Source: an uncultured Candidatus Berkelbacteria bacterium
GTDB taxonomy: Bacteria > Patescibacteriota > UBA1384 > UBA12157
Direction of reading: 5' to 3'
Assembly (NCBI GenBank): GCA_903877885.1
Contig: CAIRFN010000002.1
Location: forward strand, 1,734 to 65,733
DNA length: 64,000 bases
Below, piece after piece: positions 2,397-61,711 of this stretch. The notes below the pieces were generated by a model. That model was not told where the DNA came from and searched no databases. It saw nothing but the letters and a program-made list of their open reading frames with translations. Both the position numbers and the translations under genes were made by a program. Every line of letters starts with the position of its first letter. The stretch's first letter is position 1.

Positions 2397-3572
2397 ATGT
2401 TAGAAATCAAACGCGAAAATGTTAGCAAAATTAAAGTTAAATTGACGGTCAAAGTGCCAAGCAAATTAATGCAAGGTTTTTTTGACAAAGTCTATAATGA
2501 ACTTGCTCCTAGCGTGGAGGTCAAAGGTTTTCGTAAAGGCCATGCGCCAAAAGCTTTAACTGTTTCGGCTATTGGTGAAGAACGAATTAATGAAAAAATT
2601 ATTGATTTAGCTTTGAATCAAACCTATGTTGAAGCGCTTAAAAAAGAAAATATTATTCCGATTGCGCCGCCACGAATCAATATCCGCATGCTTAAAGATT
2701 TAACTGCCGAAACTGCCGAACTCGAATATGAAGCGGAAATTGATTTACTACCGGAAGTAGAAATTGGCGATTATACCAAAATTAAAATCAGCAAAGCTGG
2801 TGAAATTAAAGTTAGTAAAGAAGAAATCGATCAGGTTTTGAAACATTTGCAACAACAACATGCCACTTTTGAGGAAAAAGACGGTGCGGCCGTTGATGGC
2901 GATCGGATTGAAATGAATTTTGAAGGTACTGAACGCGGTGTGGTCTTAGATAATCTCACCAGTAAAAACTATCCGGTTATTTTAGGTAGCAAAGTTCTGA
3001 TTCCGGAATTTGAAAAAGAAATTATCGGGCTTAAAAAAGGCGACAAAAAAGAATTTGACGCTAATATTGGTAAAGACAAGAATAAGAAAAAGGTTCATTT
3101 TGCAGTCGAGATTTTAAAAGTGGAAAAAGTTAATTTACCAGAACTAGATGAAAGTTTAGCTGGTAAATTCCAACAAAAAAGTTTGGCCAAATTAACCGAA
3201 GCGATTGAAAAAGATATTGTGGAACAAAAAACCATTGCTCTGCGTCGCGAACAAGAAGGCGAGATTGCCGAAGGTTTATTAAAAATTACCAAATTTGAAG
3301 TCCCAGAATCTTTAGTTGAACAAGAAACTCACCGCATGATTGATGATATGCGTCAAAGAACTGAAATGATGGGACTACCGTTTGAACAATATTTACTTCA
3401 AATTAAAAAAACCGAAGCAGATATTCATGAAGAATTTCACGATCAAGCCGAAAAAACGGTCAAAGTTGGTTTGATTTTAGGCGAAGTTGGTAAGCGCGAA
3501 AAAATCGATTTGAAAGCCGAAGATGCTGGCCGCCAAGTGATGGAAAAATTACTCGAATACGCTAAGAAATAG
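2397..3572 (+). CDS. tig: trigger factor
   Basis: N-terminal ribosome-binding signature GFRKGHAP. 391 aa. In the classic tig-clpP arrangement. Confidence 0.9.
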   Translation: MLEIKRENVSKIKVKLTVKVPSKLMQGFFDKVYNELAPSVEVKGFRKGHAPKALTVSAIGEERINEKIIDLALNQTYVEALKKENIIPIAPPRINIRMLKDLTAETAELEYEAEIDLLPEVEIGDYTKIKISKAGEIKVSKEEIDQVLKHLQQQHATFEEKDGAAVDGDRIEMNFEGTERGVVLDNLTSKNYPVILGSKVLIPEFEKEIIGLKKGDKKEFDANIGKDKNKKKVHFAVEILKVEKVNLPELDESLAGKFQQKSLAKLTEAIEKDIVEQKTIALRREQEGEIAEGLLKITKFEVPESLVEQETHRMIDDMRQRTEMMGLPFEQYLLQIKKTEADIHEEFHDQAEKTVKVGLILGEVGKREKIDLKAEDAGRQVMEKLLEYAKK

Positions 3573-3580
3573 AATAAGAT

Positions 3581-3674
3581 TGTCATTCTCGAGTCGGGTA
3601 GTAACCAGACATCGGGAATCTAGAAACAATTAATCTGGATTCCAGATCCCGAAGCCTTCGGGTCTGGAATGACA
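3581..3674 (+). repeat. MITE-like structured intergenic repeat, copy 1
   Basis: TGTCATTCTCGAG...ACATCGGGAATCTAGAA...GGATTCCAGATCC-loop-GGTCTGGAATGACA. The terminal inverted repeat is TGTCATTC/GAATGACA. An internal hairpin TTCCAGATCCCGAAG/CTTCGGGTCTGGAA is present. The element ends 12 nt before the clpP ATG. Confidence 0.85.
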
Positions 3675-3686
3675 GAAGGAAAAACA

Positions 3687-4286
3687 ATGGATAAACAAAT
3701 TCGCAATAATTATCTCGTGCCAATGGTGGTGGAAAAATCCCCATATGGCGAACGAGCTTATGATATTTACTCAAGATTATTAAAAGACCGCATCATTTTT
3801 TTGGGCGGTCCAATTGATGACGAAACAGCCAATATTATTATGGCTCAATTGTTGTTTTTGGATTCTGAAGATCAGAAGAAAGACATCTCTTTGTATATCA
3901 ACTCACCTGGTGGTGTGGTGACGGCTGGTATGGCGATTTACGACACGATGCAATATATTAAATCTGATGTTTCGACTATTTGTATTGGTCAAGCCGCCTC
4001 GGCCGCCGCGGTTTTGCTGGCTGCCGGTGCTAAGGGTAAACGCTTTGCTCTACCAAATTGTCGCGTGATGATTCATCAAGTCATGGGTGGTGCTGAAGGC
4101 CAAGCCACTGATATTGAAATTCAAGCCAAAGAAATTTTGCGGGTCAAAGAATCGTTAAATAAAGTTTTAGCCAGTCACACCGGGCAGGCAATTTCCAAGA
4201 TCGAAAAAGACACTGATCGCGATTATTTTATGTCTGCAGATGAAGCTCTTAAATACGGCATTATTGATAAGGTGATAGAAAAATAA
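3687..4286 (+). CDS. clpP: ATP-dependent Clp protease proteolytic subunit
   Basis: Full ClpP homology ([25 protein letters not shown]). RBS GAAGGA lies 7 nt upstream of ATG 3687. The ATG at 3669 lies inside the repeat and has no RBS. Confidence 0.93.
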
Positions 4287-4331: not shown

Positions 4332-5441
4332 ATGAAAAAAAGAGTTTTGATTGTCTCATTTAAAATTGGGTTAGGTCATTATAAGGCGGCCGAAGCGATT
4401 GAAGAAAAATTGCGCCAAAATCACCCGGAATTGGATATTAAGCATGTCGATATGGTTGACTATATTAGTTTGTTGGGCGGCAGTATTTATCAAAAAGGCT
4501 ATCTGGCAATTACTGACAAGGCGCCGGAACTATGGCGCATGCTTTATCATCAAACGCCAGCTTATTCCGCCAAATTACGTTTGATTTTTGATTTAGCCAA
4601 CACCGCCAAATTTCGCAAATTAATTTTTGCCCATGAACCAGATTTAGTTATTTGTACTCATTTTATTCCCGCCAGTCTCTTGTCACACTGGCGCGAAACC
4701 TTAAATTTAGAAACCAAATTAGCTTTTATTCTGACTGATTTTGAAAGTCATCCGCATTTAATTATTCCTGGACTCGATTTATACTCGGTGGCGGCCGATT
4801 CGGTTAAACATGAATTAGTTAAAAATAAGATTGATTCAAGTAAAATCGCAGTTACTGGTATTCCAGTCAAAGCCAATTTTACTAAAACCTATGAAAAGTC
4901 CAAAATTCGCCAAAAATTGGGTTTAAAAGATAAATTTACTGTTCTTCTGATGAGCGGCGGTTTTGGTGTTGGTGAAATCGAAGATATTTTCTCGCGTCTA
5001 CAAGAATCCACAGATGATTTACAGATTGTGGCTGTGGCTGGTTATAATAAGGAATTGGAAAAAGATTGGCAGAAAGTGGCTAAAAAATCACCAAAAGTTA
5101 ATAAGATTTTTGGTTTTACCGATCAAGTGGCTGAACTAATGGCCTCTGCCGACGTTATTGTCTCTAAAGCCGGTGGTTTGACTGTTTCCGAGTCGCTTTG
5201 TATTGGGACGCCGCTTGTGATTTTTAAGCCGACTCCCGGCCAGGAGGAGGCTAATACTAGATATCTAGTCAGCCGCGCGGCTGCGTATCATGCCGAAACG
5301 GTCAAAGGAATTTTAAATATCATTAATCGAGTTTTTTTGGGTCAAGAAGATATTATGGCAATGAAGAAAAATATTGCTAAAATCGCTAAACCTCATGCGG
5401 CCGAAATCGTGGCTCTAAAAGTGGTTGATTTAATTAAATAA
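4332..5441 (+). CDS. GT28-family glycosyltransferase (MGDG synthase / UgtP-like diacylglycerol glycosyltransferase)
   Basis: N-terminus has the VLIVSFKIGLGHYKAAEAI pattern of MGDG-synthase-like proteins. C-terminal half has a MurG-like G-loop (VSKAGGLTVSE). RBS GGGAGGG. Confidence 0.65.
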   Translation: MKKRVLIVSFKIGLGHYKAAEAIEEKLRQNHPELDIKHVDMVDYISLLGGSIYQKGYLAITDKAPELWRMLYHQTPAYSAKLRLIFDLANTAKFRKLIFAHEPDLVICTHFIPASLLSHWRETLNLETKLAFILTDFESHPHLIIPGLDLYSVAADSVKHELVKNKIDSSKIAVTGIPVKANFTKTYEKSKIRQKLGLKDKFTVLLMSGGFGVGEIEDIFSRLQESTDDLQIVAVAGYNKELEKDWQKVAKKSPKVNKIFGFTDQVAELMASADVIVSKAGGLTVSESLCIGTPLVIFKPTPGQEEANTRYLVSRAAAYHAETVKGILNIINRVFLGQEDIMAMKKNIAKIAKPHAAEIVALKVVDLIK

Positions 5442-5464
5442 TATAATTTTTAAGGACTAAAAAA

Positions 5465-5484
5465 GCGGTTGCTTTCGCAACCGC
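5465..5484. terminator. bidirectional terminator hairpin between convergent genes
   Basis: GCGGTTGCtttcGCAACCGC flanked by an A-run. Confidence 0.6.
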
Positions 5485-5486
5485 AG

Positions 5487-6191
5487 TTAGGTTTTCCGTT
5501 TGGTAATATCGATATTAACGAGATCATGACTAGCCTTGAGAACAAGGTGTATTTCTCGGACCGTTTCGTCGGCCATGAGATAACGAATCGAACCAACCAG
5601 TTGCTCAGCGCGGGTTGGTTGTCGCTTTCGAGCGGTTTTGGGAGCCGCTTTCGGTTTCTCAATTGGTTGTTGAATCACAACAGGAACCTCCTCGGGAATA
5701 GGAATAATCGGCGGTATGGGTAGCGATGTTTTTGGGGTAACTAATCCAGTTTGAGTTAAAACTTTTTGATGTTGTTTTAAAGTTTCTTCACGATTAATTA
5801 TTTGTTCTAATATTTTGAATTTATCAAATGTAATAACTTTTGTTCCAGGCATCTCTTTATATCGCTCGTAGAGATTATTTTTAAAAGCATAAATTTCAAC
5901 TTCTTGATTATTAATGGTAATTGCATCAAGTAGAACGTGCTGATACTCATGGTCACCACTGACAACAATAATCGTATCAACAACTTTATCAGCGGAAATT
6001 CTTTCAATATCTTTGCAAATAGCTGAATCTACATCCGTGTCGTTGGGTAAATTTTTATGCACGGAATAACCTATTGCTTCTAAAGATTGAAGAAATATTT
6101 TTCCATTTTTACCATAAATCGGATATTGATAATAATACCGTGCGTCAATAAGCTCTCGTTTTTGGCTGATAAAATGATATAATTTCTTCAT
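5487..6191 (-). CDS. NYN/LabA-like (PIN-fold) domain protein with Pro-rich linker and C-terminal domain
   Basis: IIVVSGDHEYQHVLLDAI...VEIYAF is the LabA/NYN core. A PIPPIIPIPEE linker follows. An upstream in-frame stop bounds the start. Confidence 0.6.
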   Translation of the reverse strand: MKKLYHFISQKRELIDARYYYQYPIYGKNGKIFLQSLEAIGYSVHKNLPNDTDVDSAICKDIERISADKVVDTIIVVSGDHEYQHVLLDAITINNQEVEIYAFKNNLYERYKEMPGTKVITFDKFKILEQIINREETLKQHQKVLTQTGLVTPKTSLPIPPIIPIPEEVPVVIQQPIEKPKAAPKTARKRQPTRAEQLVGSIRYLMADETVREIHLVLKASHDLVNIDITKRKT

Positions 6192-7134: not shown

Positions 7135-8590
<1,456 letters not shown>

Positions 8591-8746: not shown

Positions 8747-9203
8747 TGTATTTTAACCTAAATCCCACCTGCGAGGTGGGATTATATGGTTTGAATAAGG
8801 TTGGAAATTATCGTCTCAATGGACGAGGCGTTTGCCTCTGGACTTTCCAAGGATTTTTTGATAAACTGAATCAGTTGGGCGGCAAAATAGCTCCGTTTCT
8901 TATCAAGGTGCCTCCTCAAGAGTCATACTTCCCGTAAAGTCGTGGTATGACTCGGATCAAGGATGGGATAACGGGCATATGCCAGGTGCACACGGCATAT
9001 GATCGCTTTAGACCTATGTCAAAAAGCGCTAAAACCAATCTCTGCAGGGTTAAGAAGCAACCTATTTTTCTGCAGATTAAAGGGCAGTCCGTTTCAAAAG
9101 CGGCAACGAGTGATCTGGACCATTAAAGGTTCATACTCGACGGCTTAGAGGCTCCCTCCGCTCAATCTCATGATACAGCAGTATCTTCCTATTTCCATTT
9201 TCC

Positions 9204-9262
9204 CCGTACTATTGATTAGTCCGGGGTTTTTTGATAGAATTCAGATATATTATCGGGAGGTA
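9204..9262 (+). repeat. leader cassette copy A (terminator-like hairpin + T-run + conserved leader + GGAGG)
   Basis: CCCCGTACTATTGATTAGTCCGGGGTTTTTTGATAGAATTCAGATAT..TATCGGGAGG. Near-identical to 9646-9706. Confidence 0.7.
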
Positions 9263-9268
9263 ATGAAG

Positions 9269-9619
9269 ATGATTCGGTTACCGCGTAACAAAGTTCCTTG
9301 TTACAATCGGAGTTGTGGTACGAACTGCAACCATGCGTTTGATGACCATTGTGTTGTTCCTAATGTTGAGACAACCAGTCTGTTTTCTGTCGAATATCGC
9401 CAACAATGTCAACATACAGATAAAACTTACGAACAAGGTATGCAATGTCTGGAAAATATCGAAGGAAATCCGCTTTCCGCCGAAACTTTAATAAGGCATC
9501 GGTTTAATATTCCGAATGATCAACCGATTACCGATATTGATTTACGCAACTATGACACTATTTGTATGGCCGAAGCGCATGCTGTATTTAATATGCGCCC
9601 GCCGGCAGTACTTTTATAG
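9269..9619 (+). CDS. hypothetical Cys-rich small protein
   Basis: 116 aa (MIRLPRNKVPCYNRSCGTNCNHAFDDHCVV...). GGAGG lies 8 nt upstream. Preceded by cassette copy A. Confidence 0.5.
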   Translation: MIRLPRNKVPCYNRSCGTNCNHAFDDHCVVPNVETTSLFSVEYRQQCQHTDKTYEQGMQCLENIEGNPLSAETLIRHRFNIPNDQPITDIDLRNYDTICMAEAHAVFNMRPPAVLL

Positions 9620-9645
9620 ACATCTCTCGTTTAAATTTTTAGATC

Positions 9646-9706
9646 GCCCCGTACTATTGATTAGTCCGGGGTTTTTTGATAAAATTCAGATATCCTATCT
9701 GGAGGT
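9646..9706 (+). repeat. leader cassette copy B
   Basis: CCCCGTACTATTGATTAGTCCGGGGTTTTTTGATAAAATTCAGATATCCTATCTGGAGG. A partial third copy (hairpin + TTTTTTGATAAT) lies at 10526-10552. Confidence 0.7.
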
Positions 9707-9714
9707 GAACCTTA

Positions 9715-10287
9715 ATGACTAAGAATATCGATGGTATTGTTGGAGTTGAACACGCCGCGCGTTTTACCGATAATCATCGGATAATTAACGCGCCGATGGA
9801 TTATCTTCTGTTTTATCCGGGTGGTGATTATCATCAAGCCTTGGATTTAAGATCGGTTTTAGGTGAAAATTTTGTGATCGATTTGCTTCAAGAATTGAAA
9901 AATACAGAGGCAGTTCTAGCCACGCTAAATATCGACGATGATAAGCTGGTTAAAGGTTGTTCAATTGAATTTCGCGGTCCGACAAGTAATATTGTCACAA
10001 ACAAAAAACCGCAAATTTATGTGATTCATTATCTCGATGGTTCTGGTTTTTATCCATTTACGGCCCGATGCGAATTGTCGGCTTTACGCTGTTTTATGGG
10101 CTTGTTTACACATCGATCAGAACCGATTACAAAAGAATTAATTAATCACTTTGGCATTGATTCATTGCGACGATTCTATCCTGAATCAGGCGAATGGGTA
10201 ACGATTTTTCCTTTGGACGATGATTGGAATAATCGTTGCCAAAAAATGTTTCTTGATTATCGGGAATTGATGGTAATTGGAGGTTAA
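9715..10287 (+). CDS. hypothetical protein
   Basis: 190 aa with no recognisable domain. GGAGG lies 10 nt upstream. Preceded by cassette copy B. Confidence 0.55.
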   Translation: MTKNIDGIVGVEHAARFTDNHRIINAPMDYLLFYPGGDYHQALDLRSVLGENFVIDLLQELKNTEAVLATLNIDDDKLVKGCSIEFRGPTSNIVTNKKPQIYVIHYLDGSGFYPFTARCELSALRCFMGLFTHRSEPITKELINHFGIDSLRRFYPESGEWVTIFPLDDDWNNRCQKMFLDYRELMVIGG

Positions 10288-10291
10288 ATAC

Positions 10292-10528
10292 ATGGGACAT
10301 CATGTTTATTGCATTAACCATTGCATATGCGGGAAAACCAAACATCATATTGGAGCGCGGTTAGAGATAGTACCAACATCTCATAATGATAATGAATCGG
10401 CAGCATCTTATCTTGCCCAAATAGAGGTGCGAACTAATCGTCTACACATTGGCGATTCAATCGAAGTTGGAACACAGATTTTCATTATCGACCAAGCTTT
10501 GTTGGACAAATGGAAATCTACTCCCTGA
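10292..10528 (+). CDS. hypothetical Cys/His-rich small protein
   Basis: 78 aa (MGHHVYCINHCICGKTKHH...). GGAGG lies 8 nt upstream. Followed by a hairpin/T-run. Confidence 0.45.
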   Translation: MGHHVYCINHCICGKTKHHIGARLEIVPTSHNDNESAASYLAQIEVRTNRLHIGDSIEVGTQIFIIDQALLDKWKSTP

Positions 10529-10597
10529 TCCTTGACTGGTTCAGGGTTTTTTGATAATAAAAAACCGCCGGTTTGGCGGTTGATAGAAAATCATCAG

Positions 10598-11056
10598 TTA
10601 TTTTTTGGATTTAAACGGATTCTTATTAAATGGCTTTTCCCAGTCATCTTCTGGTATGACGCTGGCGTGACGGATTTGCTGCGCCATTTTTCGGAATGAT
10701 TTGAGATCGCGAAATTTAAAAACTTTAATCGAATCTTCATCAATATGCCAGGGAAAAATTGGAAATTCTGCGCGTTCACATTCTTGAACAGAAATATTAT
10801 TGCTGTTTACCTCTAAATGGCTAATGAATAATCCGGAACGGAAGCGCCGGCCGTCTACTGGTTCAAGGCTGACGCGACTTTGGTCATTGATGGCGATTTT
10901 ATAAATTCGGTTTTTGAATCTTAAAAACAATTTCAAATGCTTACCTTGATCAACTTTACCTTGATTTCGTAGTCGCTCAATAGCAATTCCAACTAATTCC
11001 TTAATTGCTTCGATCAAGTCAGGATTTACAATTTCAGTGGATTCAATATTCTCCAT
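10598..11056 (-). CDS. hypothetical protein
   Basis: 152 aa ORF convergent with the Cys-rich array. Followed on the minus strand by hairpin AACCGCCGGTTTGGCGGTT. Confidence 0.5.
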   Translation of the reverse strand: MENIESTEIVNPDLIEAIKELVGIAIERLRNQGKVDQGKHLKLFLRFKNRIYKIAINDQSRVSLEPVDGRRFRSGLFISHLEVNSNNISVQECERAEFPIFPWHIDEDSIKVFKFRDLKSFRKMAQQIRHASVIPEDDWEKPFNKNPFKSKK

Positions 11057-11196
11057 CACACTCTCCTTTAAGGTACAGACTGATATATGAATTATACGGG
11101 ATTATCCAGATTAAATCAAGCCTGGTGATGACTCTTGGACTTTGAAAAGTATTTCTAGTATAATCAGGCCAGATTACCAAAGAAGGAGTACCTTAA

Positions 11197-11610
11197 ATGA
11201 AACCAGGGTTTTGCGTTACAGTCGTCTTGGCGTCAATAACCAATATCGTTTGCACCTTAGTTTACTGTTTTGGTCATGGTTCATTACTATGGCTATCCGC
11301 CAGTTTAATGACTGATTTGGTTTTAATTATCGTCGGCACTGCTTGCTTAAAAACCCAAAAAATTATTCGGTATGAATATGTTTTAGATGAAATTGCTAAA
11401 AGAGTTAATGCGAATTGGCCAACCTGTTCGCAAATCAGTCAGACATTAATTAATCATATTACAGAGATTGGTTTGATGGATAATCAGGCTGAAATCGATT
11501 ATGCTTTAGGTCAAATTGTGGCTCAAGCCGAACTTTTAGATCTGATTGGTTATGAGGACCATTCAGCGGAAACCATTGATCATTTTGTAAAAATGGCTCG
11601 TGATTATTAA
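11197..11610 (+). CDS. hypothetical membrane protein
   Basis: 137 aa. N-terminal TM segments. Putative TTGGAC-18-TATAAT promoter upstream. Confidence 0.5.
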   Translation: MKPGFCVTVVLASITNIVCTLVYCFGHGSLLWLSASLMTDLVLIIVGTACLKTQKIIRYEYVLDEIAKRVNANWPTCSQISQTLINHITEIGLMDNQAEIDYALGQIVAQAELLDLIGYEDHSAETIDHFVKMARDY

Positions 11611-11682
11611 ATCTCACTCGGCCCTGCATTTGCGGGGTCTTTTTTAATTAAATTTATGATATGATAAATACAAAGGAGCGGA

Positions 11683-12054
11683 ATGATTACATATTTTTCG
11701 TGGTGGTATGGCGAGGCTCTCACAAATTATTTGATTGCCATCAAAGTAATGGTTGGCAAAGTTTACTCATTTTTTTCGATTCGAGTCTTAATTAAAACCC
11801 TTTTTGATCCTTGGAAACGCGACGCTTATTCAGTCGAAAATGCTTCACTCCAAGCTCGAATGAAAATCTGGCTCGATAATATGATCTCTCGATTAGTCGG
11901 TTTTGCAGTCCGACTTTTTACGGTTTTATTAGGATTGGCCGCAATCTTATTATTTTTCGTACTTTTATTAGTCGGACTTCTGGTTTGGCTGGCTTTCCCA
12001 ATTTTGGTTTTAGGATTAATTATTAATGGTGCGAGGATAATGATCAATGGCTAA
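11683..12054 (+). CDS. hypothetical membrane protein
   Basis: 123 aa with hydrophobic C-terminal helices. Overlaps the start of the downstream Clp ATPase by 8 nt. Confidence 0.5.
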   Translation: MITYFSWWYGEALTNYLIAIKVMVGKVYSFFSIRVLIKTLFDPWKRDAYSVENASLQARMKIWLDNMISRLVGFAVRLFTVLLGLAAILLFFVLLLVGLLVWLAFPILVLGLIINGARIMING

Positions 12055-14467
12055 TTTTGATTTTGTTAATTCTACAAGTTACAAAGCTTGGCGCACAAAA
12101 AAAGATTTTGCCCAGACTTTTATAATCATGACCATTATTATGGTTGCTCTTTTGGTTGTCAGTTTTGTCTTAATGTTTCAAGGCACGACCATGTTTTTGG
12201 GTCTTGGCCAAGTTGTTTTAGGTTTAGTGATTTTGGTTGAAAGTTATTTGGTTGCGGCGCGCTATGCTACCACGCCAGTTAAAAATAGTCAGAATTTGGC
12301 TGATCGCTTTTCGCCAAGTTTAATCGAATCAATGGATCAAATCTATGCCAGCGCTCAACAAGAAGGCTTGATCGAAATTACTCCAGCCTATTTTTTTGAA
12401 AAAGCGACCTTGTTTATCGAAGGTCTAATTATATTTAACCGGCTAGGATTGCCGTTTTCCAAAATTAATGCGGTTAAACAAAAAGTCATGACGCCTAAAT
12501 TTTCCGCGGATTTTGTCAATATCATTTCGACAATAAATACGCCTGGCTTAATTGAATCTGAAGATTTGTTGGAAAAAGTAATTGAAAGCTCGCCGCAAAT
12601 TCAATCGTATTTAGCTGACGCCAAAATTAATCAAAAAGATTTTCAAACAGTTTTGAATTGGGTTCGCCGAATGAAAAAAGAATCAATTACACCGAAATTT
12701 TACCAGCAAGCTAATGTGATTGCCGGCATTGGTGAAGACTGGTCTTATGGTTACACACCGATTTTATCGCAATATTTGACTGATCTGTCATGCTATTTTC
12801 AAGATCCGAACTACACGATTGATGTTTTTAGTCACTCTAACAAGCTCGATGATATTCAAAATATTTTAGCTAAGCCTTCAAAAAACAACTGTTTATTAGT
12901 AGGCGATCCAGGTGTGGGCAAGAAAACGATTGTAAATGCTTTGGCGGCCAAAATTGCTCACGGTGATTGTTTGAAACCCTTGAAATATAAACGAATTCGC
13001 CAAGTTGATGTCGGCCGTCTTTTGGGCGGTGATTTGGGCGAACTAACCACCAGAATCAATAATGTGATGGTCGAAGCGATTAATGCCGGCAATATTATTT
13101 TGTTTTTTGATAATTTCCAGAGTTTGATTGGCGGTAGTGGTGCCGAAGTCGGCGGCGCCGATGCTTCGCAACTTTTGTTGCCATTTTTGGAAAATTCGCG
13201 AGTTCGAATTATTGCTTCGGTTACACCAGATGATTATTTTTCGCGGATTCGAAATAACCAGGCCATTGCCGAATCATTTGAAAAAATTGATATTGAACCG
13301 GCTAATATTTCCGATACTGAAGGAATTTTACTCGATTATATTGGCAATGTTGAACATCAATATAATATTTATTTTGATTTTCAGGCTTTGAAAACCGTTG
13401 TTAGCTTAGCCGATCGTTATGTTCACGATGTGCCTTTTCCGGAAAAAGCTTTGCGTTTAGTCGAAGAAATCTCGACTTCTTTGGGGAATACAGGCAAGTT
13501 AGCTTTTATTTCGCCTGAAGATGTCGAAAAGTTTATGTCTAAAAAAGTGAATGTGCCGATTGGCCAAGCTCAAGAAGGGGAGAAGACTAAATTATTAAAC
13601 TTAGAAAATATTTTACACGCCCGAGTGGTTGGTCAAGAAGAAGCGATTAATGCCGTGTCCGACGCGCTTCGTCGCGTTCGAGCAGGCCTCACTGCTGGTA
13701 AACGACCGGTTGGTGTATTTATGTTTTTAGGTCCAACTGGTGTGGGTAAAACCGAAACCGCTAAAGCCTTGGCCGAGTCGTATTTTGGCAGCGAAAAAAA
13801 TATGATCAGGTTAGATATGTCGGAATATCAACAGCCAAACTCAATCGATCGATTATTGGGTAGTGCCACCAATCCTTCAGGAATTTTAACCGATGCGATT
13901 TTAGCTAATCCATTTAGTTTAATTTTACTTGATGAAATTGAAAAAGCGGACAAAAATGTTTTGAATGTTTTCTTGCAAGTTTTTGAAGACGGCCGCCTCA
14001 CTGACGTTCGCGGCCGAGTTTCGGATTTTACCAATGCGATTATTATTGCGACTTCTAACGCTGGGAGCGAATATATTCGCGAAAATGTTGGTCAAATTAA
14101 TGCCAGTCAGCTCAAAGAAAATTTGATAAATAAATTACAACAAGATGGCGTTTACACTCCGGAATTTTTAAACCGTTTCGACAGCGTCATTGTTTACCGA
14201 CCACTTTCGATTATCGAATTAACCAAGGTGGCTAGCTTAATGATCGCTGATATTAATCAAATGCTAGTCGAGAAAAAGGTGAGTGTCACGATTGAAAAAG
14301 ACGCACTTCAAAAACTGGTAGAACTTGGTAATGATCCGCAATTTGGGGCGCGTCCAATGCGGCGGGTAATTCAAGAAAAAATCGAAAATTTGTTGGCTAA
14401 AAAAATGCTGGCAGGTGAAGTCGCCGAAGGCCAGACTTTAAATGTGACTTTGGCTGATTTGGGCTAA
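12047..14467 (+). CDS. membrane-anchored Clp/Hsp100-family AAA+ ATPase (ClpA/ClpC-like, two AAA modules)
   Basis: N-terminal TM hairpin (residues about 25-75), then Clp_N-like repeats. D1 Walker A is GDPGVGKKT. D1 Walker B is ILFFDNFQ (Asn in place of the catalytic Glu). D2 Walker A is GPTGVGKTE and D2 Walker B is LLDEIEKA. No ClpB-type middle domain. Confidence 0.85.
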   Translation: MANFDFVNSTSYKAWRTKKDFAQTFIIMTIIMVALLVVSFVLMFQGTTMFLGLGQVVLGLVILVESYLVAARYATTPVKNSQNLADRFSPSLIESMDQIYASAQQEGLIEITPAYFFEKATLFIEGLIIFNRLGLPFSKINAVKQKVMTPKFSADFVNIISTINTPGLIESEDLLEKVIESSPQIQSYLADAKINQKDFQTVLNWVRRMKKESITPKFYQQANVIAGIGEDWSYGYTPILSQYLTDLSCYFQDPNYTIDVFSHSNKLDDIQNILAKPSKNNCLLVGDPGVGKKTIVNALAAKIAHGDCLKPLKYKRIRQVDVGRLLGGDLGELTTRINNVMVEAINAGNIILFFDNFQSLIGGSGAEVGGADASQLLLPFLENSRVRIIASVTPDDYFSRIRNNQAIAESFEKIDIEPANISDTEGILLDYIGNVEHQYNIYFDFQALKTVVSLADRYVHDVPFPEKALRLVEEISTSLGNTGKLAFISPEDVEKFMSKKVNVPIGQAQEGEKTKLLNLENILHARVVGQEEAINAVSDALRRVRAGLTAGKRPVGVFMFLGPTGVGKTETAKALAESYFGSEKNMIRLDMSEYQQPNSIDRLLGSATNPSGILTDAILANPFSLILLDEIEKADKNVLNVFLQVFEDGRLTDVRGRVSDFTNAIIIATSNAGSEYIRENVGQINASQLKENLINKLQQDGVYTPEFLNRFDSVIVYRPLSIIELTKVASLMIADINQMLVEKKVSVTIEKDALQKLVELGNDPQFGARPMRRVIQEKIENLLAKKMLAGEVAEGQTLNVTLADLG

Positions 14468-14571
14468 TTTTCATCTACTATCTTTTAATTATATTTAGCT
14501 GTACAATTAAATTATATTAAATTAATATTGTTCGAACTCGCCAGCGAGAACAATCATCTACAGGAGGGGAA

Positions 14572-16755
14572 ATGTCATTTCTAAAATCAACACGTCAAAA
14601 AGTTTTATTATCAATCATCATCGGCGTTTTAATTATCGCGCTGGGAATTTTTGGTTATCTTTGGCAAACCGGAAAATTAAAATTTTCTGCTAGTACTATA
14701 GCAACGCCGAAGGTTTTTAACTATGTTATGTCAACAACCGATACAAGTAAATACGATGCCGCAAGCACTCTTGTCACTGACAGTGGCTACATTAAACTTA
14801 ATGTTACTGCTAGTCCTTCTAGCGTTAAAACCATCTCAACAACTGTTAGCGGAATACAAAATCAATCAGAGTTGAGTGAATGGATTCTAGTCACATCTGG
14901 TGCAACGACTCCGCTTAAAACCGCACCGGTGGCTAATGTAATTAGTACTTTGAATCGGACACCAAATAGTTTCGACAACAACAACAATATTACGGCTTCA
15001 AAATCTTTTACTCATCCGATCGTTCTAACTTTAACGCCACAAACCTTACCTGTTGGAGCAGTAATCAGTAATATTAACGTTTATGCATTGAAAAATAACA
15101 GCGGTCTTAGTGGAAATGATTTAAATATGATATTATCGAGCGATTACAATGTAGCCCGAAATTTTACTGTGTCTCCTCAAGGCTGCGCTGGTACAAATAC
15201 TGTCTGTAATATCGACTTTAACAAAAACTACAAAGCTGGAGCACAATCTCCTTGGACAGCGGCCGATTTGAACACGCTTTATTTGTCAATCATACCGACA
15301 ACCGTGTCTAGTTCTTCTATCAGTATGATTCAAGTAACTATCACTTATACCAATCCATTTAGTGCGGTTACTACCGGTCTTATTGCCCCGACTAATGCTA
15401 ACTTTAGCGATTCTGGTAATACTTTAACTGCTTGGCAAACAGTTAAAGTCGATAAGCTTTTAATTCCGATGTTGCCTTCATCGGCATCAGCTTCTGCTCA
15501 AATCCAGTGGTTTGCTGGTACCCAAGCTAATATCGCGGCTGATCTGGCTTCGGTCAAATTGACGAATAGTTTATTAACTACCTGTAAGAGTAGTTGTTCA
15601 TCAGCGATTACTATTGGCTCCACAGCCGCTCTGAATCTAACCAATAGTCCGGTGGGGCAGTATGGTGCCTATGCTATTAAATTCTATGTTTCCAGCTTAT
15701 TGCCAACCTCTTTGCAAGTTGGTCAAAATCTAACTGTATCCGCCGCCGTTCCAGCGCCAGTAGCAATTTGTCCGGTAAATTTAACAGTTAATCCTACTAG
15801 TCTAGGGGTTAATGAGAGTATTACTATTACTGGTACTAATTTTAAAACCAGTGGTGTCGCTTATAGTGTTTATATGATGAAATCAGATGGATCGTCGACT
15901 ACTAAAATTAACTTATCATCAGTTATAGTTTCCTCAACAATGAGTATGATCGCGGTTATACCACCTAATGTGAGTATCGGCAATTATTATATTTATGTTC
16001 AAGATCCAACTTGTTCTGCTACTAAATCAAGTAATGTCCTTAATATTCATGATAGTTGTAATCTTGATGCCACTTTCCAAAGTAGCCTGAATGCAGCGCT
16101 TCAACCAGTCATTGCTAGTGTTTTACCGGCTGGTATCAGTTTAGGTGATTTAAATCTTGGAACTGCTTTGAGAGATAGCCAGACTAAAATGTCAAATACG
16201 CCAGTTGTTTTAACTCCCGCCGAAATCGTAAAGCTTAAAAATAAAACTTTTACATCTGATGACGTTAAGAATGTTAGTCTTCGTTTTTTTAATACCGGCA
16301 CTCAACCGATGCAAGTCTATTTTGCCGGACAAGTAGAGAAACAATTCCTTGATATTGGCCAAAATATGAATTCAAAACAATGGTATAAACTATACCAATA
16401 TTATAATGATTATACGACTTACAAATCTTTTTATGATAGTGTTAATAAGCAAAGAATTCTTACCACACCAGCCTATACGGTTACGGCTAATCTTGGAGGT
16501 CTAAGCGGCGCCACTATTCAAGCAGTCAATAATTCCTATACACTTACTGTCAATCCGAATCTTTCCGCAACTTATGCTTGTCATGCTATTACAGGGTCGA
16601 TCAATTGGTCAATTCGTGGTAATTTGAATACTAAAGCCCAGGCAGTTAATATTTCTTATGGTGGTGTTACTTATAAAGCCTTTAGTATTAGCTATGATGC
16701 GGGGGTTTCCAAATCAAATCCAACGATTAATTTGCAATATATTTCTCCGCTATAA
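14572..16755 (+). CDS. large Ser/Thr/Asn-rich secreted or surface protein with signal anchor and IPT/TIG-like segment
   Basis: 727 aa. N-terminal hydrophobic anchor, low-complexity S/T/N-rich sequence, and ITITGTNF (IPT-like). Confidence 0.65.
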   Translation: MSFLKSTRQKVLLSIIIGVLIIALGIFGYLWQTGKLKFSASTIATPKVFNYVMSTTDTSKYDAASTLVTDSGYIKLNVTASPSSVKTISTTVSGIQNQSELSEWILVTSGATTPLKTAPVANVISTLNRTPNSFDNNNNITASKSFTHPIVLTLTPQTLPVGAVISNINVYALKNNSGLSGNDLNMILSSDYNVARNFTVSPQGCAGTNTVCNIDFNKNYKAGAQSPWTAADLNTLYLSIIPTTVSSSSISMIQVTITYTNPFSAVTTGLIAPTNANFSDSGNTLTAWQTVKVDKLLIPMLPSSASASAQIQWFAGTQANIAADLASVKLTNSLLTTCKSSCSSAITIGSTAALNLTNSPVGQYGAYAIKFYVSSLLPTSLQVGQNLTVSAAVPAPVAICPVNLTVNPTSLGVNESITITGTNFKTSGVAYSVYMMKSDGSSTTKINLSSVIVSSTMSMIAVIPPNVSIGNYYIYVQDPTCSATKSSNVLNIHDSCNLDATFQSSLNAALQPVIASVLPAGISLGDLNLGTALRDSQTKMSNTPVVLTPAEIVKLKNKTFTSDDVKNVSLRFFNTGTQPMQVYFAGQVEKQFLDIGQNMNSKQWYKLYQYYNDYTTYKSFYDSVNKQRILTTPAYTVTANLGGLSGATIQAVNNSYTLTVNPNLSATYACHAITGSINWSIRGNLNTKAQAVNISYGGVTYKAFSISYDAGVSKSNPTINLQYISPL

Positions 16756-16842: not shown

Positions 16843-17259
16843 CTATTTTTTAATTTCCACCTTATCACCAATCTTAAAATCGGAATTGGCGTTGAGTTCG
16901 AGAACTAAATTAGCTTTTTGTTTTGGTTGATATTGAGGAATATTATTGGCGGTTTGTGGTTGTAAGGTGGCGATATCAACAATTCTATTATCTTGAATCC
17001 AAATAATATCTAACGGAATTTTGGTATTTTTCATCCAAAAAATATAAAAATCTGGTTTATCAAAAACAAATAGCATGCCTTTATTATGGTCTAAATGATC
17101 GCGGTTCATTAAACCATAGGCGCGCTCGGCCTCTGTCTTGGCAATTTCTACCTCAAAAGTTTGGTTATTAATTACAACTTCGGTTTTTTTGGGCTTTAAT
17201 AATATTACCAAACCGATAATAACAAGGACAATTAAAATTGCTGGTAAGACTTTTTTCAT
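16843..17259 (-). CDS. DUF192 domain protein
   Basis: N-terminal signal anchor. GLMNRDHL...GMLFVF...FWMKNTKIPLDIIWI matches the DUF192 (COG1430) signature. Confidence 0.8.
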   Translation of the reverse strand: MKKVLPAILIVLVIIGLVILLKPKKTEVVINNQTFEVEIAKTEAERAYGLMNRDHLDHNKGMLFVFDKPDFYIFWMKNTKIPLDIIWIQDNRIVDIATLQPQTANNIPQYQPKQKANLVLELNANSDFKIGDKVEIKK

Positions 17260-17330: not shown

Positions 17331-17407
17331 GGGCGATTAGCTCAGCTGGTTAGAGCGCGTTCCTGATAAGAACGAGGTCATTGGTTCGAGTCCAATATCG
17401 CCCACCA
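17331..17407 (+). tRNA. tRNA-Ile (anticodon GAT)
   Basis: GGGCGATTAGCTCAGCTGGTTAGAGCGCGTTCCTGATAAGAACGAGGTCATTGGTTCGAGTCCAATATCGCCCACCA. Cloverleaf intact and CCA encoded. Confidence 0.95.
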
Positions 17408-18090: not shown

Positions 18091-18099
18091 GAAGAATAT

Positions 18100-18172
18100 G
18101 GGCCCGTAGCTCAGTTGGTAGAGCAACTCCTTTGCAAGGAGAAGGTCGGAGGTTCGAATCCTCTCGGGTCCA
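18100..18172 (+). tRNA. tRNA-Ala (anticodon TGC)
   Basis: GGGCCCGTAGCTCAGTTGGTAGAGCAACTCCTTTGCAAGGAGAAGGTCGGAGGTTCGAATCCTCTCGGGTCCA. No encoded CCA. Confidence 0.95.
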
Positions 18173-18194
18173 AAGCTTTTAAATTTTTTTAAAT

Positions 18195-26835: not shown

Positions 26836-27770
26836 TTTATTAGACCAAAAAAGGAAAGGCTCAAGGATGGGTACTAACCTTAATTTAGAGGGGGTAGACG
26901 ACTAAAATAAAGTAGCAATTTTGCTTGCGATTTTGTTTAGTCCGCTACAAAGGTTACAGCGGACTTTTAAAATTCTAGGTTGTAAGATTCTAAATAAACA
27001 TTTGTTTAGAGAATATAACTTAGAAATTTAACCTTCTAAGATACTTTAACAACTCAAAGATTGATTTCTCTTCTTTTGAAAGTTAGGGAGAGTGGTTAAA
27101 AGATATGTGTCTTTTAGCTTGTCAATCGAGTTATTTTTATTATTTTAGTATCTTGGTTGTTGTCCAACTAAAATAAAATTCGTTAAGAGCATATGGAGGA
27201 TGCCTTGGCATAGAAGACCGATGAAGGACGTAGTAGGCGTGCGATACGCCTCGGGGAGCTGCCAAACAAGCTTTGATCCGAGGATTTCCGAATGGGGAAA
27301 CCCATCTAGCGAAGAGCTAGATATCCAACATCCATCCCTTCAGCACGAATGAGCCCACCTGATCCATTAAATTTATAGGGATCAAGACAATGGGTTTTTA
27401 ATCATTTCGCGCTGGGGGACGGATGTTGGACGGGCACCTGGGGAACTGAAACATCTTAGTACCCAGAGGAAAAGAAAACAATACTCAACTCAATTGAGAG
27501 ATTTAAATCAGCCTTCGGGTTGATTTAAATCTGTGATTCCCTTAGTAGCGGCGAGCGAAACGGGATCAGCCTGGTGATTTCAAGTAAATATTTATTAGCC
27601 AAATGAACCTGGAAAGGGCGACCAAAGAGGGTAATAGTCCCGTAGGCGAAAATTATATTTGAACTGTTATCACTTCTCACTTTCCTTCGGGATTGTGGGA
27701 AAGTACCACTAGACACGTGAAAACTAGTGGGAAGACGGGGGGATCGTCCCCCAAGGCTAAATATCTTCTA

Positions 27771-27818
<48 letters not shown>

Positions 27819-29147
27819 AATTGGGGAGTGAAATAGTACCTGAAACCATATGCTTACAAGAAGTCGGAGCCCGCAAGGGTGACGGCGTGCCTTTTGTAGA
27901 ATGAACCTACGAGTTAGCTGGCAGTGGCTTGGTTAAGTTCCGATAGGGACGGAGCCGTAGCGAAAGCGAGTGTTAATAGCGCGAATTTGTCATTGTCACT
28001 AAACCCGAAACCGGGTGATCTATCCATGAGCAGGTTGAGTCTCTGTGAAAACAGAGAGGAGGACCGAACACTATAGCGTTGCAAAACTATGTGATGACTT
28101 GTGGATAGCGCTAAAATAGCAATCGAACCCGGAAATAGCTGGTTCTCCCCGAAATATATTTAGGTATAGCGGTTTATTACATCTGAAGCGGTAGAGCTCT
28201 GGATGGTCTTGGCGGCGCAAGCCGTCGGACCAATCAAACTCCAAATTCTTCAGGTCAAAGGATAAATCAGTCAGACTGTAGGGGCTAAGCTCTATGGTCG
28301 AGAGGAAAACAGTCCAGACCGCCATCTAAGGTCCCAAAGTGAAACTTAAGTGGAAAAGGATGTGATCATCCTTAGACAACTAGGAGGTTGGCTTAGAAGC
28401 AGCCATCCTTTAAAGAAAGCGTAACAGCTCACTAGTCAAGGATAATTGCGCCGAAAATTTAACGGGGCTCAAAGTTTCCACCGAAGATGCGGATTCAAAA
28501 TTTATTTTGAGTGGTAGGGGAGCGTTCTTATTGGAGTGAAGGTGAACCGTGAGGTTTGCTGGACCGATAAGAAGTGCGAATGTAGGTATGAGTAACGAAT
28601 TAGGCAGGCGAGAAACCTGCCCACCAAATGTCTGAGGTTTCCCCCGCAACGATAATCGACGGGGGGTTAGTCGGGCCTAAGCTTTATGCGATGGACAGCC
28701 GGTTGATATTCCGGCACTGTTATAAGATTATATAGCGATGACGCCGAACGAATGTTTCTGTGAGCGCATGGTTGCGAGCAGAAGTTGAAGTTTGGACAAG
28801 AAAAGTCGCTATCCACTACTTATAGCACCCGTACCGCAAACCGACTCAGGTAGACGGGTGGAGAACACCAAGGTGATCGAGCTAACTTTCCCAAAGGAAC
28901 TCGGCAAAAAAACGGGCGTAACTTAGGGATATGCCCTGCCTACTCGAAAGAGAGGCTGCAACCAACGAATTTCAGGCGACTGTTTACCAAAAACTTAGGT
29001 CTCTGCGAACCCATTTTGGGGATGTATAGGGGCTGATGCCTGCCCAGTGCTAGTAGGTTACGGGGAGAGGTGATTCCGCTAACGCGGATGAGCTTTGAAC
29101 TTAAGCCCTAGTGAACGGCAGCGGTAACTATAACCGTTCTATGGTAG

Positions 29148-29903
<756 letters not shown>

Positions 29904-30398
29904 TGGCATAACGGTCTGAAAACTGTCTCTGGGAAGGGCTCGGTGAAATTACAATGCCGGTAAAGATGCCGGTTACGCGCAGCAAGACGGAAAGACCCCG
30001 TGAAGCTTTACTATAGCTTGATATTGGGTCAAAATTTTAATTGTATAGTGTAGGTGGAAGCCTTCGGGCGACAATGTAACACCACCCTGTTGAAATTTTG
30101 ATTCTAACCCTCGAAAGAAGGGACAGTGTCAGGTGGGTAGTTTAACTGGGGCGGTTGACTCCTAAATTGTAACGGAGTCGTTCAAAGGTTGGCTTGTCCC
30201 GGATGGAAATCGGGATGAAAGTGCAAACGCATAAGCCAGCTTAACTGCAAGGGATACACCCCGCGCAGATGCGAAAGCAGGAGTTAGTGATCCTCTGGCA
30301 CAGTATGATGTGGCCAGAGCTCAACGGATAAAAGCTACTCCGGGGATAACAGGCTGATCGCGCCCAATAGTCCACATAGACGGCGCGGTTTGGCACCT

Positions 30399-31249
30399 TA
30401 ACACATTGGGGTGCTGTGGGAGTAATCCCATACCAAAAAATCGGCTTATAACGGTGAACCCCTATTGTTTGTTCGGGTTTTATTCATTAGAATAGAATAA
30501 AATAAACAAGGGCGATACCGTGGGAAGTCTAACGTCAATTCAGAAAGAAGTTTTGATTGGAAGTTTGTTGGGTGACGGCGCATTGCGCAAGCAAGGCACT
30601 AGAACTAACGCGCTTCTTGAAGTTAATCATTCTTTTCAATATAAAGAATATGTTGATTGGAAATGGCAACATTTCAAGGAGTATATAAAAACTCCACCAA
30701 AGCCTCGACATGGTAATGGCAATCGTATTGCTTATCGCTTTACGACTCAAAGTTTACCGTTTTTTACAGAATATTATGATAAATATTATTCAAATGGTAA
30801 AAAATTTATTGCGCCAGATATTACATTGACCCCTCTGATTTTGTCAGTTTGGTTTATGGATGATGGTTCAAAGAGTCGTAACACTTATTATCTGAATACC
30901 CAACAATTTTCGATCGAAGATCAGAATTGTTTAATGAGTATTCTTGATAGAGACTTGAAAATTAAATCAAGTTTGAACCGCGATAAAATATACTGGAGAA
31001 TTAGAATAAGAACGGAAAGTGCCGACAGATTTAAAAAAATTGTTGCACCTTACCTGTTACCATGTTTCCGTTATAAAATTGACAATGACCCCGTAACGAC
31101 TGATTCGAAAGATGAGATTTAGCTACTTGTAATTTAGCTAGATAACACGCCGCACCCTACATAAAAAAGTAAAGGATATGGCTCACGCCTAAAGTCCAAC
31201 TGTAGGGAAAAGATATAGTCTACGCCATTAGTAATAATGGATAAAAGTA
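30399..31249 (+). mobile_element. group I-like intron 2 in 23S (E. coli position about 2500)
   Basis: About 850-nt insertion between GGCACCT and CGATGTCGG. Carries a LAGLIDADG ORF. Exact boundaries are uncertain by a few nt. Confidence 0.75.
30520..31122 (+). CDS. LAGLIDADG homing endonuclease (two-motif type)
   Basis: GTG start. Motifs LIGSLLGDGAL and WFMDDGS. 200 aa. Located inside intron 2. Confidence 0.85.
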   Translation: MGSLTSIQKEVLIGSLLGDGALRKQGTRTNALLEVNHSFQYKEYVDWKWQHFKEYIKTPPKPRHGNGNRIAYRFTTQSLPFFTEYYDKYYSNGKKFIAPDITLTPLILSVWFMDDGSKSRNTYYLNTQQFSIEDQNCLMSILDRDLKIKSSLNRDKIYWRIRIRTESADRFKKIVAPYLLPCFRYKIDNDPVTTDSKDEI

Positions 31250-31783
31250 CGATGTCGGCTCACCCTATCCTGGGGGTGTAGTAGCTCCCAAGGGTTTGGC
31301 TGTTCGCCAATTAAAAGGGTACGCGAGCTGGGTTCAGAACGTCGTAAGACAGTTCGGTCCTAATCTGCTGTGCGCGTTGAAACTTGAGAGGACTTCGATT
31401 TAGTACGAGAGGACCAATCGGAACGAATCTCTGGTGTACCAGTTGTTCTACCAAGAGCATTGCTGGGTAGCTATATTCGGCCGTGATAACCGCTGAAAGC
31501 ATATAAGCGGGAAGCACACCTCAAGATCAGGTTTCGTTTAGATCCCCAGTAGACCACTGGGTTGATAGGCTCTAGGTGTAAGATGGGTAACCATTTCAGC
31601 CAAGGAGTACTAATTGATCAAGAATTTTATTCAGTTGGGCAACTACCAAGATATCTAAAATAATAATAATTCAATAATTCATAATTCAGAATGAAATAAT
31701 TAATTTTTTTATAAATCTAAATTTTATAATTCTGAATTCTGCATTAAATAATTAGTAATAAATTGTGAATTTTGTCCTGGTGT

Positions 31784-31893
31784 CAGTAGCGATCGGGCCA
31801 CACCTCTTCCCATTCCGAACAGAGTAGTTAAGCCGATCAGCCCCGATGATACTCGGTCCGCAAGGGTCCTGGAAAGTAGGACGACGCTGGGAC
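31784..31893 (+). rRNA. rrf: 5S ribosomal RNA
   Basis: GTCCTGGTGTCAGTAGCGATCGGGCCACACCTCTTCCCATTCCGAACAGAG...GGGTCCTGGAAAGTAGGACGACGCTGGGAC. An AT-rich spacer separates it from 23S. Confidence 0.9.
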
Positions 31894-57833: not shown

Positions 57834-57848
57834 GTCATATCTTAAAAT

Positions 57849-59045: not shown

Positions 59046-59046
59046 A

Positions 59047-60072: not shown

Positions 60073-60219
60073 ACGACCAAGAGAGCAATCACCTGTAGCT
60101 GATTGCGCTCATTGGCAGAGGAATATAAAAATAGGGGACGGTTCTCTTTTTAAGGTAAGTTTGATAATTTCTCTTTTTATGTTATGATTATTTTAGACTA
60201 TAAAGAGGAGGGAAGGAAT

Positions 60220-61702: not shown

Positions 61703-61711
61703 AGGAAAACC

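Follow-up and report, generated by a model that had tools for sequence, protein, structure and literature searches.

A stretch of 64,000 nucleotides from an uncultured Candidatus Berkelbacteria bacterium (positions 1,734 to 65,733 of the forward strand of contig CAIRFN010000002.1, assembly GCA_903877885.1), here called the window, encodes a small membrane protein of 123 amino acids (aa) at 11683..12054 (+) and, directly behind it, a membrane-anchored two-ring Clp/Hsp100-type ATPase of 806 aa at 12047..14467 (+). This module of a small membrane protein and a membrane-anchored Clp-type ATPase is widely conserved in the Candidate Phyla Radiation (CPR)/Patescibacteria. The genes of the partner and the ATPase overlap, and in some lineages both are found as a single polypeptide. 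Judged from the sequences, the chances are about even that the two proteins form a two-component membrane machine that would act independently of ClpP, would be driven by the second AAA+ ring (D2), would probably not thread its substrates in the canonical way and would remodel the small partner or proteins bound to it.

The product of the 806-aa open reading frame (ORF; ATG start) was confirmed as a two-ring Clp/Hsp100 family protein with Pfam, HMMER, AlphaFold2 and Foldseek. Pfam matched AAA_2 (residues 553-713, E 2e-46), ClpB_D2-small (723-800) and AAA_lid_9 (422-495), and gave only weaker AAA matches for the first AAA+ module (D1). The protein thus has the tandem AAA+ modules of the two-ring class I Clp/Hsp100 proteins, the second being of the AAA_2 type and followed by the C-terminal ClpB_D2-small domain (14213..14446, +; PF10431, E 9e-22). 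The AlphaFold2 model, built on 41 homologues, reached a mean predicted local distance difference test score (pLDDT) of 84.9. All top Foldseek matches of this model were ClpC, ClpB or ClpA, the best being ClpC of S. aureus or B. subtilis (E 1e-46 to 1e-50) with a target-normalised TM-score of 0.83, and D2 alone was closest to D2 of T. thermophilus ClpB (E 7e-83). The best NCBIfam models were ClpB, ClpA, ClpV, ClpG and ClpK, all far under their curated cutoffs. The scores were 474.7 vs 1232.1 bits (TIGR03346) and 406.5 vs 1417 (PRK10865) for ClpB, 440.7 vs 993.15 (TIGR02639) and 342.7 vs 1350 (PRK11034) for ClpA, and 372.4 bits against a cutoff of 884.95 for ClpV/TssH. Neither the window nor the related loci yielded any genes of a type VI secretion system.

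The N-terminus of the ATPase carries a predicted transmembrane hairpin (12113..12256, +), composed of approximately residues 23-43 and 48-70 with a loop of four residues (QGTT). In a Kyte-Doolittle plot with a 19-residue window, two adjacent hydrophobic segments peaked at 3.04 (residues 19-54) and 2.03 (residues 45-71), and AlphaFold2 placed helices at residues 10-43 and 48-72 with pLDDT values of 85-92. The two N-terminal transmembrane helices proposed by a first-pass annotation, which had been made from the letters of the window and its ORFs, were therefore borne out as predicted features. Both segments were also found in the homologues P0001-P0058, and the homologue tiers at 30-45% identity have N-terminal hydrophobic segments as well. 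The hairpin is followed by a divergent Clp_N double-repeat domain (residues 85-202; 12299..12652, +), also in agreement with the first-pass annotation. It was detected with hhalign, which aligned the N-region of the family with positions 3-137 of canonical Clp_N over 116 columns (probability 97.4%, E 8.9e-12). Pfam alone gave no Clp_N match in the ATPase at E<=10, and nothing credible was obtained from Pfam or NCBIfam for its N-terminal 260 residues up to E=10. Pfam Clp_N matches on the second-tier homologues P0044-P0050 could not be reproduced at E<=0.01, so the profile-profile comparison was needed. As Clp_N spans residues 85-202, the hairpin precedes the entire domain rather than being an internal helix of it. 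These results support a genuine N-terminal extension that all close and many distant relatives share. Basic residues flank the hairpin (K13, R16, K18 and K19 ahead of the first helix, R72 and K79 beyond the second), and a topology with both ends in the cytoplasm is predicted, given the positive-inside rule and the fact that the ATPase requires ATP from the cytoplasm.

The partner gene (ORF, 8-nt overlap and family hidden Markov model, HMM) encodes an N-terminal domain of ∼65 aa with invariant WWY, FS, L and T-F-P, followed by SR-G-R and a hydrophobic hairpin of ∼55 residues. Its invariant residues are W7, W8, Y9, F31, S32, L36, T39, F41, P43, G73, R77, G84, W102 and P106. The 3' end overlaps the start codon of the clp gene by 8 nt (...ATGATCAATGGCTAA), an arrangement from which the partner is taken to be translationally coupled to clp. 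Homologues of just 55-58% identity are likewise preceded by this 123-aa ORF, with an overlap of equal length. With the family HMM, the partner was detected in 17-18 of 19 loci, either directly ahead of the membrane-anchored Clp or as a fusion with it; this count takes in the divergent upstream-ORF cluster of L012, L024, L048 and L052. In P0056, P0057, P0061 and L040, the entire partner module, N-domain and hairpin, is fused to the ATPase and replaces its own hairpin (E 1e-21 to 1e-25), and the short forms P0088 and P0090 contain a partial partner module. Such Rosetta-stone fusions argue for a physical complex of partner and ATPase; a natural fusion also folded confidently (pLDDT 88). The partner HMM matched the fused forms only and not P0001-P0055, and an origin of the ATPase's own hairpin from a diverged partner copy was rejected. 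The partner family comprises 1,426 representative clusters (50% identity) at E<=1e-3. Its members are almost always standalone proteins of about 125 aa, and nearly all of the best 150 of the 1,426 representatives have 118-148 aa.

Co-transcription of clp with two small membrane proteins had been suggested, and of these two genes only the overlapping partner gene is coupled to clp. For the other one, ORF137, co-transcription is not supported since a terminator-like hairpin at 11620-11639 (GGCCCTGC-ATTT-GCGGGGTC, then T6) intervenes between ORF137 and the partner gene. Searches of Pfam and NCBIfam with the partner and ORF137 up to E=10 gave no credible family; matches to Ycf70, holin and TrbC, obtained for these two proteins and the N-terminal 260 residues of the ATPase, were all far under their cutoffs. 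The 727-aa secreted S/T/N-rich protein encoded downstream had also been pointed out. In tblastn searches and neighbourhood tables, ORF137 and the 727-aa protein occurred only in near-identical contigs, and the gene downstream of clp changes from one related locus to the next. As both are missing from related loci, neither has a conserved functional link to the pair.

In a search through 5.8 billion proteins, 43 full-length relatives showed 50-70% identity and further tiers 30-45%, and intact full-length homologues number in the hundreds. Some 60 homologues with a membrane anchor, belonging to Berkelbacteria, Saccharibacteria, Parcubacteria and other Patescibacteria, share the losses in D1, the pore loops, the M-domain and the ClpP tripeptide; all motif counts given below compare 60 of these homologues with 41 canonical Clp proteins. 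Twelve more genomic loci from Patescibacteria, Saccharibacteria and Parcubacteria showed the same losses of pore loops and Arg fingers. When genome contigs were scanned with the family profile, canonical Clp proteins dominated the result, since the patterns obtained by back-translation were motifs of D2: approximately 12 of 80 loci were true family members, none with at least 50% identity. Source names place the clade of the window in Candidatus Berkelbacteria/Patescibacteria. Five family loci (L009, L024, L040, L048 and L052) are titled 'uncultured Gammaproteobacteria bacterium' in TPA records, which may be a misassignment since their gene content is CPR-like. Existing annotations of the family read 'ClpC', 'Clp protease ATP-binding subunit' or 'AAA family ATPase'. 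The family is proposed to be defined by the hairpin (own or donated by fusion), the partner upstream or fused, and an aromatic motif ahead of D1, all of which are present in the pair of the window.

D1 (12833..13546, +) is catalytically degenerate according to HMMER alignments, a codon check and the family counts. Its Walker A motif reads GDPGVGKKT (12902-12928). The motif had been listed as a plain D1 signature; the letters are as given, but the motif is itself degenerate, with the Mg-coordinating Thr replaced by Lys. This Thr is present in none of the 60 homologues (Lys in 48), while the canonical proteins have Thr in 40 cases and Ser in one. The Walker B motif is IILFFDNF (13094-13117). HMMER alignments to T. 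thermophilus ClpB (1qvr) and to B. subtilis ClpC/3j3t set ILFFDNFQ on ILFIDELH and thus N356 (codon 13112-13114, codons checked) at the position of the catalytic Glu; they do not place this Glu elsewhere in the sequence. The Glu-to-Asn exchange read from the sequence earlier was hence correct. It had also been called the same change as in experimental substrate traps, which is imprecise, as the trap mutants among the PDB matches carry Glu-to-Ala (FIDALH, 3j3t). Only one of the 60 homologues retains the Walker B Glu (Asn in 52) compared to all 41 canonical proteins. The Arg fingers are gone (AIAESFEK vs canonical ALERRFQ, RR to ES), and the D1 pore loop has no Tyr (GGD--LGEL vs canonical AGAKYRGEF). 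In the family, the canonical Tyr position is aromatic in 0/60 and the whole loop window is devoid of aromatic residues in 51/60. The P-loop Lys is kept in 59/60 (canonical 41/41). Taken together, the motifs support a D1 that is naturally inactivated. The mean pairwise identity within the clade was 0.60 for D1, 0.76 for D2 and 0.38 for the N-terminus, and the value for D1 indicates that this module is under selection.

D2 (13604..14206, +; Pfam, HMMER alignments and family counts) carries the GPTGVGKTE and LLDEIEKA motifs originally reported for it. Its catalytic set is complete with K568, T569, D629, E630, N671 (sensor-1), R710 (Arg finger) and R769 (GARP sensor-2). Lys, Thr, Asp, Glu, sensor-1 and Arg finger were found in 60/60 homologues and sensor-2 in 59/60, and all are present in the 41 canonical proteins. 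In the D2 pore loop DRLLGSATNPSGILTDA (13847-13897), a deletion of five residues takes out GYVGY: the alignment reads GSAT-----NPSG against GAPPGYVGYEEGG in canonical proteins. An aromatic residue is left in this loop in 4/60 membrane-anchored homologues vs 41/41 canonical Clp. The aromatic pore-loop-1 residue of two-ring Clp/Hsp100 proteins (KYRG in D1, GYVG in D2) is consequently absent from both rings.

All threading AAA+ unfoldases known so far use aromatic pore-loop residues. These aromatics are needed for translocation in ClpB, ClpA and ClpX, which is also established knowledge (PMC5425593). As they are lost in both rings, classical unfolding is probably not the function of the ATPase. 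This bears on the main rival explanation, in which a conventional membrane-tethered Hsp100 unfoldase threads membrane proteins for extraction, disaggregation or quality control, with D1 as trap or holder and D2 as motor. The two-ring Clp fold with Clp_N, the complete catalytic set of D2 and the D2-small domain speak for it, tig and clpP are encoded nearby in the clade of the window, and membrane-anchored AAA+ extractases such as FtsH and Msp1 exist. However, the canonical pore-loop tyrosines are gone from both rings and the aromatic of the D2 loop persists in very few relatives. The M-domain for coupling to DnaK is also missing, as had been noted before: ∼100 ClpB and ∼54 ClpC residues have no counterpart in the HMMER alignments, and residues 487-507 of the ATPase bridge ClpB residue 417 straight to 520, so that the coiled-coil M-domain which ClpB carries in D1-small is absent. 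The roles in extraction, disaggregation or quality control that were offered with the original description are weakened by the pore-loop losses, and we regard a threading extractase as rather unlikely.

At the position of the ClpP-docking [LIV]-G-[FL] tripeptide of ClpA and ClpC, the ATPase has a short helix-loop-helix with V-G-Q, which is ClpB-like in length. V-G-Q is not conserved, as relatives show V-T-S, V-Q-A, V-N-S or V-D-A. The tripeptide [LIVM]G[FL] was found in 0/60 members vs 32/41 canonical Clp, in line with the missing docking loop of the first description. These results stand against a membrane-tethered ATPase partner of ClpP, i.e. an FtsH-like membrane protease assembled from Clp parts. 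Such a protease would fit the clpP gene that precedes the pair by 5-8 kb in the window and in L085-L087, the convergent and directly adjacent clpP of the short fused form P0090, and the lack of clpX after tig-clpP in the window. Yet the linkage is limited to the clade of the window and P0090 and is not seen in Saccharibacteria, Parcubacteria or other loci, and a 16S rRNA gene lies between clpP and the pair. A ClpP partner is thus very improbable. From the missing tripeptide, M-domain and pore-loop aromatics we infer an ATPase that is independent of ClpP and DnaK and does not thread canonically.

A family-specific motif GIGEDWSYGYTP was found by family alignment in the linker between Clp_N and D1 (residues 227-238; 12725..12760, +). 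Its consensus is G-[IV]-G-x-[DE]-W-[SA]-[YF]-G-Y and the ATPase has GIGEDWSYGY (residues 227-236). W232 is conserved in 55 of 58 members, G235 in all 58 and Y236 in 51, and the motif is absent from canonical Clp. This aromatic motif could be a substitute contact for the substrate or the partner. The nearly invariant GIGxDWS[YF]GYTP falls in a low-confidence loop of the AlphaFold2 model directly ahead of D1.

In the proposed mechanism, partner and ATPase would each be anchored in the cytoplasmic membrane by a helical hairpin, their soluble parts lying in the cytoplasm. The ATPase would assemble as a hexameric ring of the Clp/Hsp100 type, topped by a membrane collar from the hairpins of both proteins. 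D1, with its P-loop Lys kept, may serve as a non-hydrolysing assembly or nucleotide-binding ring resembling D2 of NSF, and D2 would be the sole motor. ATP hydrolysis in D2 might then remodel, assemble or disassemble the partner, or proteins bound to it, at the inner face of the membrane. This action would be non-canonical and probably non-processive, comparable to that of Torsins. Cell-envelope or division proteins are possible clients, suggested by a weak neighbourhood signal.

Several points weigh against this mechanism. Clp_N is retained and D2 is complete, as would be expected of an Hsp100 that processes substrates. The missing pore-loop aromatics are no proof against translocation, and the conserved aromatic DWSYGY ahead of D1 could touch substrates. 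Some Saccharibacteria members retain GKT and DE in D1, so the degeneracy of the D1 Walker motifs is clade-specific and the pore-loop loss family-wide. The transmembrane topology was derived from hydropathy, AlphaFold2 and the positive-inside rule and not with a dedicated predictor. The association with envelope and division genes described below is weak, being seen in a minority of loci from small genomes rich in such genes. Finally, the orthology of the Southlakia genes, also described below, was deduced from domain coordinates, sizes and gene order and not from sequence.

With ClpC and ClpA, the ATPase shares the two AAA+ modules, the N-terminal Clp_N double repeat and the D2-small domain, and with ClpA a D1-D2 junction without a long M-domain. 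It differs from both in its transmembrane hairpin, in lacking the ClpP loop and the pore-loop Tyr of either ring, and in a D1 that lost Walker A Thr, Walker B Glu and Arg fingers; the M-domain/UVR segment of ClpC is absent. Like ClpB/Hsp104, it has a short helix-loop-helix at the ClpP-loop site and is probably ClpP-independent. Unlike them, it is membrane-anchored, has a dead D1 and lacks the pore-loop tyrosines and the M-domain as DnaK docking site. NSF (D2) and p97 (D1) are two-ring AAA+ proteins in which one ring is a non-hydrolysing assembly ring and the other ring the motor. The analogy is functional, as one ring keeps nucleotide-binding but not catalytic features; these soluble proteins come from another AAA+ clade and retain pore loops in the active ring. 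FtsH and Msp1/ATAD1 are N-terminally membrane-anchored hexameric AAA+ extractases at the membrane surface and resemble the ATPase in this anchoring. In contrast to it, their one AAA module is of the classical type and has aromatic pore loops, and FtsH carries an M41 protease domain, whereas no Peptidase_M41 match was found in the ATPase.

The closest functional analogy is that to Torsins and their cofactors. Torsins are Clp/Hsp100-related, membrane-associated via an N-terminal hydrophobic segment, devoid of aromatic pore loops and argued to be non-processive, and they depend on a small membrane-anchored cofactor, LAP1 or LULL1 (PMC5425593). Membrane association, missing pore-loop aromatics and a small membrane partner are shared, as an analogy only. 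Torsins have a single AAA+ module without an Arg finger of its own and reside in the lumen of the endoplasmic reticulum (eukaryotic endoplasmic reticulum/nuclear envelope); the ATPase has two modules, its own invariant D2 Arg finger R710 and, by inference, a cytoplasmic body. A special sequence relationship to Torsins was dismissed, as no Torsin chain occurred among the best 60 PDB matches of D2. A bolder proposal, which we put forward tentatively, is that a double-ring Hsp100 scaffold was converted throughout the CPR into a non-threading, Torsin-like ATP switch, with D1 as dead assembly ring, D2 as motor and pore loops in neither, that operates with the hairpin protein of ∼125 aa and remodels complexes of membrane or envelope assembly instead of unfolding proteins. 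If true, no bacterial Hsp100 would have been shown before it to act without translocating a substrate, and the principle of Torsin and cofactor would have a counterpart in prokaryotes.

A putatively orthologous pair is found in Southlakia epibionticum, for which transposon sequencing (Tn-seq) data are available. SEML1_0700 is annotated as 'AAA family ATPase' (2583 nt) and has Pfam AAA_2 at 544-706, D2-small at 713-792 and no Clp_N match; the hypothetical gene SEML1_0701 (384 nt) overlaps it from upstream (Wang et al. 2023, PMC10633639 Table S1). Both genes share the Tn-seq calls NE, NE and GD (PMC10633639 Table S1), and their normalised reads fall in parallel from 4124 via 2517 to 1638 for SEML1_0700 and from 258 via 157 to 51 for SEML1_0701 (PMC10633639). 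The putative orthologue is flagged as core family with a growth deficit at passage 2, and the canonical ClpC of Southlakia is a separate gene, SEML1_0512 (PMC10633639). The loss of several catalytic and pore-loop motifs might also be explained by a decaying, non-functional Clp paralogue. The hundreds of intact full-length homologues, the clade mean identities of 60% (D1) and 76% (D2), the invariant catalytic residues of D2, the conserved overlap with the partner gene and the core flag and passage 2 deficit in Southlakia are opposed to this explanation, which is effectively refuted by conservation and extremely improbable.

The neighbourhood of the pair shows a weak theme of cell envelope and division. 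The genes mraZ-rsmH adjoin it in L007, L024 and L090. A Glycos_transf_4 gene of the MraY/WecA family lies directly downstream in L024 and L052, where DUF192 follows, and in L048, where the contig ends inside the gene. These envelope and division neighbours are located at 10076-11490 (L007), 4478-5838 and 9599-10648 (L024), 10733-12049 (L090) and 10140-11165 (L052). In Southlakia, a Mur-ligase-family gene and a CobQ-like gene are oriented divergently to the pair (PMC10633639), and LPG_synthase_TM, GT4 and PIG-L genes lie within 4-7 kb after the pair in the window. A dedicated factor for assembly or remodelling of the envelope and division machinery, with membrane enzymes of the dcw cluster, peptidoglycan or glycolipid synthesis as clients, would be a specific version of the proposed two-component machine. 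Nevertheless, the associations involve different genes each time in the minority of loci concerned, chance adjacency is likely in small CPR genomes dense in envelope genes, and the dcw-type cluster of the window itself is 40 kb off, so that this version appears unlikely. The cluster (56139-63103; PBP2 transpeptidase, Mur ligase, MraY and MurD) follows a gene for a 1,284-aa protein with Bact_surface_Ig-like domains (50206-54060).

Clp/Hsp100 proteins are textbook cytosolic threading machines, and the family departs from this in three ways at once: it is integral to the membrane, has no pore-loop tyrosines in either ring and possesses a dedicated small membrane protein, either paired with it or fused to it. 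The module is spread over much of the CPR/Patescibacteria, which make up a large part of bacterial diversity and are poorly understood. To our knowledge, no membrane-anchored bacterial Clp/Hsp100 has been characterised. No description of one in CPR or other bacteria was found in the full-text literature within the limited collection searched, and a TM7x transcriptome preprint mentions clpB, clpC and clpP only generically and was uninformative. The family is conserved, testable and currently mis-annotated, and present labels would mislead metabolic and proteostasis reconstructions, e.g. by implying a ClpCP protease. Genetically tractable Saccharibacteria possess a putative pair of orthologues whose fitness phenotype is mild (PMC10633639). 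The family could also help to explain how pore-loop-less Clp relatives such as Torsins work.

The pair of the window is located in a stretched rRNA locus. The gene order in this clade is tig, clpP, 16S, a few small ORFs, the partner, the membrane-anchored Clp, more genes, DUF192, tRNAs and 23S. In the window, approximately 18.6 kb with at least 15 protein-coding genes, including the pair, separate 16S (7135-8587) from 23S (27173-31632), which is followed by 5S (31776-31892). The two spacer tRNAs, tRNA-Ile (17331-17407) and tRNA-Ala (18099-18173), are also split apart by genes. In L085, L086 and L087, 16S lies 1.4-2.4 kb upstream of the pair, and the 23S of L087 begins 7.3 kb downstream; the placement in the rRNA locus is thus conserved in this clade. 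Trigger factor adjoins clpP (3669-4286) at 2397-4286 of the window and a glycosyltransferase comes next instead of the usual clpX; neither clpX nor a canonical clpB/clpC was seen among the annotated ORFs of the window. Between 16S and the operon (8947-11059), ORFs of 149, 190 and 83 aa (+) and 153 aa (-) without a Pfam family are conserved in near-identical contigs only. DUF192 (COG1430) was found within a few genes downstream of Clp in 5/19 loci from two distant sub-clades and on either strand (window 16843-17259 (-), L024 10645-11148, L052 11137-11634, L086 17339-17782 and L087 10433-10873).

The 23S match of the window spans 4,460 nt compared to 2,925 nt of the model and contains two ORFs (29296-29727 and 30520-31122) with LAGLIDADG_1 (E 9e-25) and LAGLIDADG_2 (E 9e-42) homing-endonuclease domains. 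It probably carries two intron insertions, and no Rfam intron family reached the gathering score there. In L085, a match to group II intron D1-D4 (5785-5864; 43.4 bits vs 35) was found ∼200 nt past the 16S of this relative. The CPR contig L087 has a match to the c-di-GMP-I-GGC riboswitch aptamer at 14526-14614 (-), approximately 4 kb downstream of the pair, with 68.7 bits against a gathering score of 59.

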